A stretch of DNA of 64,000 nucleotides from a virus, in the IMG/VR virus record IMGVR_UViG_3300032242_002636, positions 1 through 64,000 of that record, one strand, 5' to 3'. Position numbers and translations under genes: made by a program. The notes beneath the pieces were generated by a model. The model was given only the letters and a program-made list of their open reading frames with translations, was not told the DNA's origin and searched no databases. Below, piece after piece: positions 1-6,751 of the stretch; position 1 is the first letter of the stretch, and every line of letters begins with the position of its first letter.

Positions 1-37
1 TCTCTAGAGTAAAACTCAATACACAACCACTTTTTTC

Positions 38-66
38 TTGCAATTCTCAATAAAAAGTTATAAGAT
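38..66 (+). promoter_or_regulatory. sigma70-type promoter for the ribozyme-containing ncRNA
   Basis: TTGCAA(38-43)-17 nt-TAAGAT(61-66); TSS expected at about 72-73. Confidence 0.7.
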
Positions 67-74
67 ATAAAAAT

Positions 75-160
75 AGTCGATGTAATGCTACCATGCGCCT
101 GTCTCAAGTCAGGGGAGAGTTCGGATAACGAAGCCGATAGAAAAGCAGAGAGCATAGACT
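75..160 (+). ncRNA. Twister self-cleaving ribozyme (type P1), predicted cleavage U83^A84
   Basis: P1 75-82/153-160, UAA 83-85, P2 UGCU/AGCA 86-89/144-147, P4 CCUG/CAGG 98-101/110-113 with loop UCUCAAGU, pseudoknots AC(90-91)/GU(108-109) and CUC(103-105)/GAG(150-152), conserved GA 148-149, P5-position hairpin 121-137. Confidence 0.88.
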
Positions 161-214
161 CGTCTGGTGTTACGATACCGAGGTACACGGTGAGCATTAG
201 ACGTTAAACAAACG

Positions 215-260
215 AAATGAGGGATTGGGTATTAGTCATACTCAGTCCCTCATTTTTTTT
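215..260 (+). terminator. Rho-independent terminator
   Basis: 17-bp stem AAATGAGGGATTGGGTA/TACTCAGTCCCTCATTT followed by a T-run. Confidence 0.9.
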
Positions 261-289
261 ATTAGGTTGACTGCTTAAAAGGATAGATG

Positions 290-317
290 TTGAATATCAA
301 AGTTGTTGTGTTATAAT
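290..317 (+). promoter_or_regulatory. sigma70-type promoter (extended -10) for small ORF/purA unit
   Basis: TTGAAT-16 nt-TATAAT with TG at the extended -10 position. Confidence 0.6.
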
Positions 318-5478: not shown

Positions 5479-5829
5479 ATGAAGAAAGTATTAAAACCAG
5501 CAGAAAGAGAAGAAGCGGCTTACTATTCCGATTTCACAGGAAAGCCTCTTAGTCAATGTAGACCAGAAGTTGATCTTAAAATGTCTTTTGGTTATGAATC
5601 AAAATATGATGGAGCACGTTTTACTCTTCATTTATCAGATGAAGATGCTGATCAGATTTTAAAGTTTCTATCTACCAAAATTTCTAATGATTGTAGGAAA
5701 GAGATACAAAAGAATCTAGAGCAGCTTGATGTTCAATATGATGATGCTATGGATTCTCGTGCGTGGGGAGAGTGTGATTTACTCCACAACAACAGAGAAG
5801 TCTATAAGAAACTTCTTAACCTTGAGTAA
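5479..5829 (+). CDS. hypothetical protein
   Basis: 116-aa ORF co-oriented after the MoaD-like gene. Confidence 0.65.
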   Translation: MKKVLKPAEREEAAYYSDFTGKPLSQCRPEVDLKMSFGYESKYDGARFTLHLSDEDADQILKFLSTKISNDCRKEIQKNLEQLDVQYDDAMDSRAWGECDLLHNNREVYKKLLNLE

Positions 5830-5836
5830 GTAGTTC

Positions 5837-6751
5837 GTGCAGTTTAACGACTATTATAAAGCCAGTAACATCAATGAATGTACTTCTGTTGGTATCTCAA
5901 TAGAAGGTAAGGTTATTTTAACCAAGAACAGAGATCGTACATATTATCCTAGAATAAAAATTGTTAGAGAGTTAATAAATGGACTTGAAGTAGCCTATAT
6001 GTATGATGAGGATACTGACTATTCAGAGGGAATGAATGAAGCTCATATCGGTATTTTAAATACTACTCTTCAAGGTAAAAAAGATGAAAATGAAGGTAGT
6101 AGTAAAAACAAGGGAAAACGTCTTAGAAGATTAAGTGGTGATGGTCATAAAATTAGAACTGCTTTAGGATATACTGATCCTGAAAAGGTTGTAAAATCAT
6201 TAGATCTATTTGATAGAGGTCTTGGTGGTCATACTACTGTTGCATATGAGAATGGATTTATTTCAATTGAAAAGTTAAAATTTGGAAAACCAGTTATCAA
6301 AAAATATGATAAAAATGGTGTTATCGTAAGAGCCAATCATGGTATTGCATATCCAGATCAGGGATATCAATTTGGCAAAGATAGAGAGTCAACACTTTCC
6401 AGAGTATTTTGGGCTACCAAAGAAGCAAGACTTGCTATCAGTCCAGAAGATTTATTAAACAAAATGAGAGAACACCATCAAGGAGTTCATGGTTATCTTG
6501 AACCATATAGAACCAATTATAAAGTATGGACATCATCACAGATACTTTTAAATGTAACTGATTTACAAATGATATTTGTAGTTGATGAAAATGCTGATTT
6601 TATTGGAATTGAAGATAGAATTCCAAAAGGACATACACCTAAAATTGATATACAAATTCAGAAGTTAGAAACAAAATTTGTCACCAGAGATGCAAACTAT
6701 AAAGGTGACGAAAGAGAAAATACAGAAGATACTACAAATTTTAGCTTGTAA
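5837..6751 (+). CDS. Ntn-hydrolase (Cys nucleophile; peptidase C45/C69, choloylglycine hydrolase-like) with 14-aa propeptide
   Basis: E|CTSVG...ILTKNRD, EGMNE, RANH, S..R motifs; GTG start after TAAGTA. Confidence 0.75.
   Translation: MQFNDYYKASNINECTSVGISIEGKVILTKNRDRTYYPRIKIVRELINGLEVAYMYDEDTDYSEGMNEAHIGILNTTLQGKKDENEGSSKNKGKRLRRLSGDGHKIRTALGYTDPEKVVKSLDLFDRGLGGHTTVAYENGFISIEKLKFGKPVIKKYDKNGVIVRANHGIAYPDQGYQFGKDRESTLSRVFWATKEARLAISPEDLLNKMREHHQGVHGYLEPYRTNYKVWTSSQILLNVTDLQMIFVVDENADFIGIEDRIPKGHTPKIDIQIQKLETKFVTRDANYKGDERENTEDTTNFSL

Follow-up and report, generated by a model that had tools for sequence, protein, structure and literature searches.

A P5-bearing type-P1 twister and a conserved partner RNA in a probable terminal cassette of a phage stable-RNA operon

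The beginning of a viral contig raises the question of what a predicted self-cleaving ribozyme does there: whether it matures a small RNA from a gene of its own or lies within a longer transcript, and what kind of RNA its cleavage would release. The window, by which we mean the whole 64,000-nt stretch that was analysed, makes up the initial 64 kb of an IMG/VR contig that measures 107 kb and has an estimated completeness of ~51%. Window position 1 is base 1 of that contig, and the element claimed by an earlier note (38-260) starts 38 bases from the physical contig end. The note described a twister in its own unit, with a promoter, a strong terminator and a built-in helix that would exclude the ribozyme fold. 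At gathering thresholds, Rfam returned four tRNAs and no other match in the whole window, and a blastn search with bases 60-265 gave no match among phage GenBank records. Two small ORFs, 85-207 on the plus strand and 3-197 on the minus strand, were considered as genes and rejected; they overlap the conserved ribozyme core, the plus-strand frame of 85-207 stops after ~20 codons in the related contig L010, and both are treated as non-coding.

When bases 1-400 were searched with permissive filters, the type-P1 twister family RF03160 was the best and only ribozyme match, at 79-156 (27.5 bits, E 6.6e-4 for 400 nt), which falls below the family's gathering score of 67.2 bits. It is the sole twister match in the contig. 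Relatives of the locus score between 25.8 and 45.3 bits with the same model. The following features were assigned.

75-160, plus strand: type-P1 twister, from the Rfam match, covariation of P1 and P4 in 19 relatives, and covariation of T1 and T2 across viral contigs
75-82/153-160, plus strand: P1, 8 bp with a G79/A156 mismatch; the Rfam part is 80-82/153-155, extended by 75-78/157-160
U83-A84, plus strand: predicted cleavage site, from the Rfam alignment
86-89/144-147, plus strand: P2, from the Rfam alignment
98-100/111-113, plus strand: P4, from the Rfam alignment; covaries in relatives
C103-G152, U104-A151, C105-G150, plus strand: pseudoknot T1; covaries across viral contigs
A90-U109, C91-G108, plus strand: pseudoknot T2; covaries across viral contigs
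114-140, plus strand: P5-type insert of 27 nt with hairpin 121-124/134-137; fold conserved in relatives

The twister proposed earlier is upheld by the Rfam match together with covariation in 19 distinct relatives, which were obtained by scanning the viral collection for the twister core. Among these relatives, P4 occurs in eight fully paired Watson-Crick or wobble forms and in two with one mismatch; the forms include CCG/CGG, CAC/GUG, UCG/CGA, UCC/GGA, CUG/CAG, CCU/AGG and GCG/CGU. P1 covaries as well (for example AGUCGAUG/CAUAGACU, UUUCUUUA/UAAAGAAA and GUUCUUCCU/AGGGAGAAU), and P2 retains 3-4 bp. The pseudoknots were assessed in a relaxed scan of viral contigs in which the T1 and T2 positions were both left free. 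The middle pair of T1 appeared as A-U, C-G, G-C and U-A (GUCAC/GAGUG, GUCCC/GAGGG, GUCGC/GAGCG and GUCUC/GAGAG, with a U-G wobble twice), and T2 switched between G-C and A-U (GCC with AAGCC, or AC(C/U) with AAGUC). The window has CUC/GAG in T1 against the consensus CCC/GGG and AC/GU in T2 against GC/GC, both of which are compensatory. The conserved core is present as U83 A84 A85, CAAG (105-108) in L4 and AAA (141-143) before the 3′ strand of P2. The canonical P1-P2-P4 order with covariation, both pseudoknots and the core nucleotides were all found. Judged by this comparison of sequences, the twister fold is genuine and belongs to a branch that the Rfam model scores poorly, and self-cleavage is predicted between U83 and A84.

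Compared with the type-P1 twister of RF03160, the window shares the P1-P2-P4 order, the UAA cleavage motif, the loop GUCNCAAGNC, the AAA-NGCN-GAGNG 3′ strand and both pseudoknots. In contrast, the middle pair of T1 is U-A and T2 has A-U, where C-G and G-C are usual; the score is 27.5 bits against the 67.2 threshold, P3 is absent, a 27-nt P5-type insert is present, and self-cleavage is here a prediction. We take Roth et al. 2014 and the structures 4OJI and 4RGE to be the references for this type. The branch to which the window belongs lacks P3 and has P5; according to a review, P5 is present in ~1% of annotated twisters (PMC6154101). The scans also brought up UAAUGCU-type twisters with AT-rich P3 hairpins in L183, L191, L209, L210, L215, L221 and L223, L221 having two on opposite strands; these contigs are named GVMAG-S-3300012954-83 and are labelled as a giant-virus metagenome assembly.

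What follows the ribozyme is also conserved. The minimum-energy fold between the twister and the terminator is a hairpin at 161-203, and comparison with relatives defines an uncatalogued RNA, here called module F, that spans 156-259. Its invariant AGACU at the start overlaps the 3′ strand of P1 in the window. The parts of this region are as follows.

156-203, plus strand: module F hairpin, from covariance model R1 and compensatory changes
161-170/194-203, plus strand: outer stem of module F, conserved
171-176/192-193, plus strand: asymmetric internal loop NNNGAU/GA, conserved
177-180/188-191, plus strand: inner stem, conserved, with a loop (181-187) that contains the palindrome GUAC
204-213, plus strand: A-rich single-stranded linker, A-rich in all 7 sequences of alignment A5
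214-260, plus strand: intrinsic terminator with stem 214-232/238-256 and loop UAGUC (233-237); 19 pairs, -26 kcal/mol
253-260, plus strand: run of eight U, of which the first four (253-256) close the terminator stem

Module F was found in 7 distinct phage or metagenome contigs, namely the window, L010, L163, L026, L155, L131 and L157. Covariance model R1, built from 4 relatives, recovers 156-259 of the window with 60.9 bits (E 2.5e-11). The alignment of the 7 sequences, all from related phages, was fitted to this model; it is therefore model-based, and the MAFFT alignments A1 and A2 placed the window out of structural register. Paired cells make up 97.5% of the fitted alignment, and changes on both sides are seen in 12 of the 23 pairs. 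These compensatory pairs are spread over helix 1 (4/8), helix 2 (2/4) and the terminator helices 3 (4/8) and 4 (2/3). None of 500 shuffles reached this level of covariation, and the highest value among slid controls was 0.18, compared with 0.536 for the alignment. No variation was seen in AGACUCGU, GAUAC, GUGAG, ACGU or the terminator loop UAGUCA. The strong terminator of the earlier note is borne out by its 19-bp stem (214-256, -26 kcal/mol) and the eight U behind it. No Rfam family matched module F, and no copy without a twister was found in the viral and metagenome collections; a loose module F pattern gave chance matches only, except for L131, and a second, twister-free pattern gave chance matches only, all in coding sequence. 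Together, the covariation and the invariant loops suggest, at the level of sequence comparison, that the terminal RNA is more than waste.

Of the extra helices in the earlier note, 161-165/199-203 survives as part of the conserved outer stem, whereas 114-120/158-165 and 166-179 have no support in relatives. The folds that are conserved instead are the P5-type hairpin inside 114-140 and the hairpin 177-180/188-191. The internal loop NNNGAU/GA resembles a K-turn with one base too many for the standard register; a strict K-turn was rejected, owing to one extra U in the bulged strand and misfits in the non-canonical stem register. Palindromes of 4-8 nt are found almost always in hairpin loops of these loci (UGCA, GCGC, CUAG, ACUAGU, UCUAGA, GUAC, UCCGGA or CUGAUCAG): in the window at 181-187 and 2-9, in module F and hairpin U (described below) of L010, L163, L026, L131 and L157, and in L011-type terminators. 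They suggest loop-loop dimerisation, or else a DNA-level mechanism that produces perfect palindromes.

Whether the twister and module F form a unit of their own depends on what precedes them. Nothing can be read upstream of base 1, which bears directly on the stand-alone claim; the short flank that is present was compared with relatives. The features around the ends of the cassette are the following.

3-40, plus strand: upstream spacer that aligns with the spacer directly before the twister in 9 relatives (alignment A6)
41-82, plus strand: window-specific AT-rich insert of 42 nt, a gap in all 9 relatives (alignment A6)
38-66, plus strand: promoter-like TTGCAA-17-TAAGAT, 8 of 12 positions, below the scan threshold
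267-317, plus strand: sigma-70-like early promoter(s) for the next genes, with TTGACT at 267-272 and TTGAAT-16-TATAAT at 290-317 (10 of 12 positions, with TG)

The spacer at 3-40 consists of the 3′ half of a covarying hairpin, which we call hairpin U, and a relic of the ancestral 5′ strand of P1 (UUUUUUCUUG). The palindromic loop CUCUAGAG of hairpin U lies at 2-9 and its 3′ strand CUCAA at 15-19; its 5′ half would fall beyond the contig start. The insert at 41-82 supplies a new 5′ strand for P1 (75-82). Relatives have a linker between P1 and module F; the window lacks it, with the result that the 3′ strand of P1 overlaps the invariant AGACU. Measured against its relatives, the window copy is a compacted derivative of their cassette, and alignment of the flank indicates that it very probably continues upstream into array RNA.

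The relatives, which are not genes standing alone, belong to RNA islands that also hold tRNAs, tmRNA and a group I intron, and most of them have tandem conserved modules without ORFs immediately before the twister. The order in most of them is module A (~170 nt), hairpin U, a short spacer and then the twister. G010, a complete genome of 154 kb, has a promoter followed by tRNA-Met, module B, module A, hairpin U, the twister, two further folded RNAs and tRNA-Trp. Other arrangements occur as well: the predicted cut of the L157 twister falls 14 nt behind the end of a tRNA, and in L029 the twister comes directly after the operon promoter and leader, ~45 nt behind TTGACC-17-TACTAT. Downstream of the twister there are three layouts, namely module F with a terminator (7 copies), a 12-nt palindromic mini-hairpin with a terminator, and further RNAs. 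The twister's neighbours on either side thus differ between relatives. The Rfam model finds one twister in each of 4 of the 5 related records and none in G006, which carries the L032 copy of the twister, found by pattern scans. None of the relatives' upstream modules was found elsewhere in the 107-kb contig. The sequences L003-L009, which are relatives by way of an adenylosuccinate-synthetase-like gene, have tRNA arrays and tmRNA, with no twister and no likeness to bases 1-330.

Based on these comparisons, we consider it probable that the region closes a phage stable-RNA operon as its terminal cassette, in which a twister is followed by module F and a terminator and cleavage between U83 and A84 yields a 5′-OH RNA. 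The twister would cleave itself once about base 160 has been transcribed and so split the transcript. The upstream piece, ending in a 2′,3′-cyclic phosphate after the short P1 strand, would consist of array RNAs from transcription entering across the contig start, or of a ~10-nt leader if the weak promoter were used. The downstream piece would be a 5′-OH RNA of ~177 nt comprising the twister body, the hairpin with the K-turn-like loop, the A-rich linker and the terminator hairpin; because the ribozyme is of type P1, it would stay on this 3′ product. Such a cut would let the upstream RNAs and the terminal RNA meet separate fates, and module F may offer its invariant loops as recognition sites to a protein or RNA partner. 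The earlier idea of a matured 5′-OH RNA accordingly remains plausible in the form of this ~177-nt product, since the RNA downstream of the predicted cut is conserved and covarying and does not look like filler. The further suggestion that the product is an RtcB substrate was not borne out, as neither the contig (G000) nor any of five related records, of which one is complete, yielded an RtcB gene. Phage enzymes as agents of re-ligation or circularisation were likewise rejected; besides the missing RtcB, there is no Rnl2-type ligase above the cut-off, although host enzymes might act in their place.

One may tentatively go further and regard the twister body plus module F as a new class of ribozyme-capped phage small RNA, with a function beyond that of a processing site; we hold this to be possible, though on the less probable side. 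After cleavage, the compact pseudoknotted twister with its 5′-OH would act as a nuclease-resistant 5′ domain, and the GAUAC/GUGAG loop, the palindromic loop and the UAGUCA loop would either contact a specific partner, protein or RNA, or bring about dimerisation. A relationship to Y RNA (YrlA) and Ro60 was considered and rejected, with no TROVE match in G000 and 5 related records and no Rfam Y RNA match in the arrays.

The main alternative to a terminal cassette is the arrangement first proposed, a stand-alone small-RNA gene. Here the promoter at 38-66 would start transcription at about 73, the twister would remove ~10 nt carrying the 5′-triphosphate, and 84-260 would be the sole functional product. 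In favour of it, no relative has the 42-nt insert, such a start would lie 2 nt ahead of P1, the L029 twister behind a good operon promoter shows that promoter-proximal twisters exist in this family, and module F is conserved. However, the promoter that had been claimed is at chance level: sites matching at 8 of 12 positions occur once per 151 nt per strand in the window, which is AT-rich. The likeness of 38-82 to the promoter region 290-332 is not significant either, with 90 of 1500 random windows scoring as high. A start near 73 fits P1 neatly, and there is no support above chance for it. The flank at 3-40 also tells against an independent gene, as it corresponds to an array spacer that is internal to a longer RNA region in 9 relatives. 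Moreover, a P1-type twister stays on the 3′ product, and a 'matured' RNA would keep the whole ribozyme as its 5′ domain. The contig begins at base 1 and bases 3-40 are homologous to an RNA-array spacer; consequently, the description of the region as its own unit, with no tRNA or gene, is unsupported, and we regard a stand-alone gene as unlikely.

A second alternative, which we consider quite improbable, is that the twister processes the 3′ trailer of a tRNA situated just upstream of the contig start. The precedent is the theta ribozymes, minimal HDV-like ribozymes beside tRNAs of gut phages (PMC10879173), and the model gains from L157, where tRNA end and cut are 14 nt apart, and from the fact that all relatives lie in tRNA regions. 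Nevertheless, the upstream neighbour in most relatives is module A plus hairpin U and not a tRNA, and the flank at 3-40 matches the hairpin U spacer and not a tRNA. Only one twister was detected per genome despite the many tRNAs in each. A theta-type arrangement would have the cut a few nt from the 3′ end of a tRNA, with one ribozyme per tRNA; among these loci, only L157 has a nearby tRNA. The L157 tRNA (137-239) has a ~36-nt intron-like insertion in its anticodon region, and its CCA is not encoded.

The last alternative is a conformational or kinetic switch, in which 181-199 pairs with 83-100 and hides the cleavage site, P2 and part of P4, giving speed- or factor-dependent cleavage or a closed refolded RNA. 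We list the feature at issue here.

181-199, plus strand: strand of the proposed alternative helix; 16 of 16 pairs in the window, 5-9 of 16 in relatives

The complementarity is real in the window. Inspection by hand confirmed the 16 pairs claimed, which extend from a perfect match of 83-89 with 193-199, and the duplex has an energy of -18.9 kcal/mol that was equalled by 7 of 300 shuffles. A fold forced to contain it has -62.6 kcal/mol against an optimum of -63.9 (~1.3 above the optimum), this fold is the optimum at transcript length 200, and the outer stem of module F in the window has three G-U pairs. Other results tell against a function. In five relatives, only 5-9 of the 16 pairs exist at homologous positions, and no compensatory change was seen; the pairs that are kept involve invariant bases only, CUAC of the twister with GU-AG of the module F loop. 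When the cleavage site is paired with module F, the most stable duplex has -3.9 to -5.5 kcal/mol in 5 of 5 relatives, which equals the shuffle background, compared with -8.9 in the window. The predicted probability of P2 in the window is 0.78 for the twister alone and 0.71 at full length, in a nearest-neighbour model that leaves the two twister-stabilising pseudoknots out of this and the above fold energies; on this modelling, the downstream sequence would leave the probability of the twister fold unlowered. Transcription would also have to proceed more than 30 nt past the complete ribozyme before the competitor strand exists. The mutually exclusive helix of the earlier note thus did not hold up in relatives, which is the first of the outcomes that the note itself had named as refuting it. 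The alignments indicate that it is private to the window phage and is not a switch, a role for which we see very little likelihood. Under the terminal-cassette reading, the complementarity would be a lineage-specific by-product of compaction, with the 3′ strand of P1 overlapping module F.

Known systems offer partial parallels for a terminal cassette. Like the theta ribozymes, the twister described here is a (predicted) self-cleaving ribozyme in a phage tRNA region and would define RNA ends without host nucleases. It differs in its class, in its single detected copy per genome where theta ribozymes come one per tRNA, in having an unnamed structured RNA as its usual neighbour, and in its occurrence in T4-like phages from viral and environmental metagenome collections. 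Clusters of twister, hammerhead, pistol and hatchet ribozymes have been reported near phage genes in bacteria (PMC6765202). Both cases place a ribozyme at a boundary inside a polycistronic phage transcript; in contrast to those clusters, there is here a single ribozyme with the fixed downstream module F and an intrinsic terminator in T4-like phages. The RNAs rnaC and rnaD of T4 (species 1 and 2; AF158101) are also small RNAs that come last in a T4-type tRNA operon, just before the terminator. Homology was rejected, with no match in sequence or structure (best R1 E 0.2), and they are positional analogues only; reading of the T4 stretch with rnaC and rnaD revealed no twister.

The ribozyme class is known, and ribozymes at phage transcript boundaries are known in outline (PMC6765202). 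What appears to be new is the low-scoring, P5-bearing branch, its position as the sole twister detected in the stable-RNA operons of these T4-like phages, and the fixed partner RNA; we found no description of this arrangement in the open-access literature. The biological role of bacterial and phage twisters is still open (PMC6765202), and these loci provide a tractable setting, with one twister detected per genome, in a fixed kind of place in a T4-like stable-RNA/tRNA operon and with a partner RNA directly behind it. A whole phage twister branch, with P5 and variant pseudoknot pairs, lies far below the Rfam threshold, and annotation pipelines would miss it. For the claim first made, the outcome is sobering, as the appealing "built-in switch" helix turned out to occur in a single sequence.

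Several covarying phage RNAs with no catalogue entry (modules A to F) come to light at these loci. Module A occurs in 11 phage contigs (L012:5335-5503, L010:4349-4519 on the minus strand, L026:9684-9856 and 8 more); it has 13 covarying pairs and a likely pseudoknot between a GUAGG loop and a downstream CCUAC, with no ORF and no Rfam match. Further tandem modules without ORFs, joined by TCATA-AATT linkers, are found at L030:742-868 and in the upstream arrays of L014, L021, L022, L035, L010 and L011. Module B (UUGACUAGGCGCAAG...UUUUCUAGUCAUA), module C (UUGAUUACUG...CAGUAAUCAU) and module D (GUGACUAGG...CCCCGGUCAU) had no Rfam match at E below 0.1, and all three have a closing terminal stem of the UGACU/AGUCA type, reminiscent of the UAGUCA loop that never varies in the module F terminator. 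Module E (CCCUGUG...CUCGACGGAG...GCAGGG) replaces module F behind the twister in L021:2612-2763 (minus strand), L028, L029 and L030:1265-1326, and in L030 it is followed by tRNA-Trp. In L010, a group I intron match (5756-6377, minus strand; 85.5 bits) overlaps the 3′ part of a tmRNA match (45 bits, slightly below the cut-off) at a distance of ~1.4 kb upstream from the twister, and may represent an intron-interrupted phage tmRNA.

Behind the terminator, the position of the promoter at 267-317 is syntenic in relatives. A sigma-70-like promoter lies ~10-15 nt past every module F cassette (the window, L010, L026, L131, L155 and L163); those of the relatives have a -35 element of the TTGAC(A/C) or TTGTA(T/A) type and a TATTAT-like -10 element, followed by ATG. 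The genes that follow differ, with three unrelated proteins in relatives and a 59-aa ORF plus a PurA-like gene in the window. The latter (490-1503), directly behind the RNA cassette and beside tRNA genes, encodes a 337-aa protein of the adenylosuccinate synthetase family (Pfam PF00709, E 1.3e-80), a short product whose length presumably recalls phage PurZ-type enzymes of 2-aminoadenine DNA synthesis.
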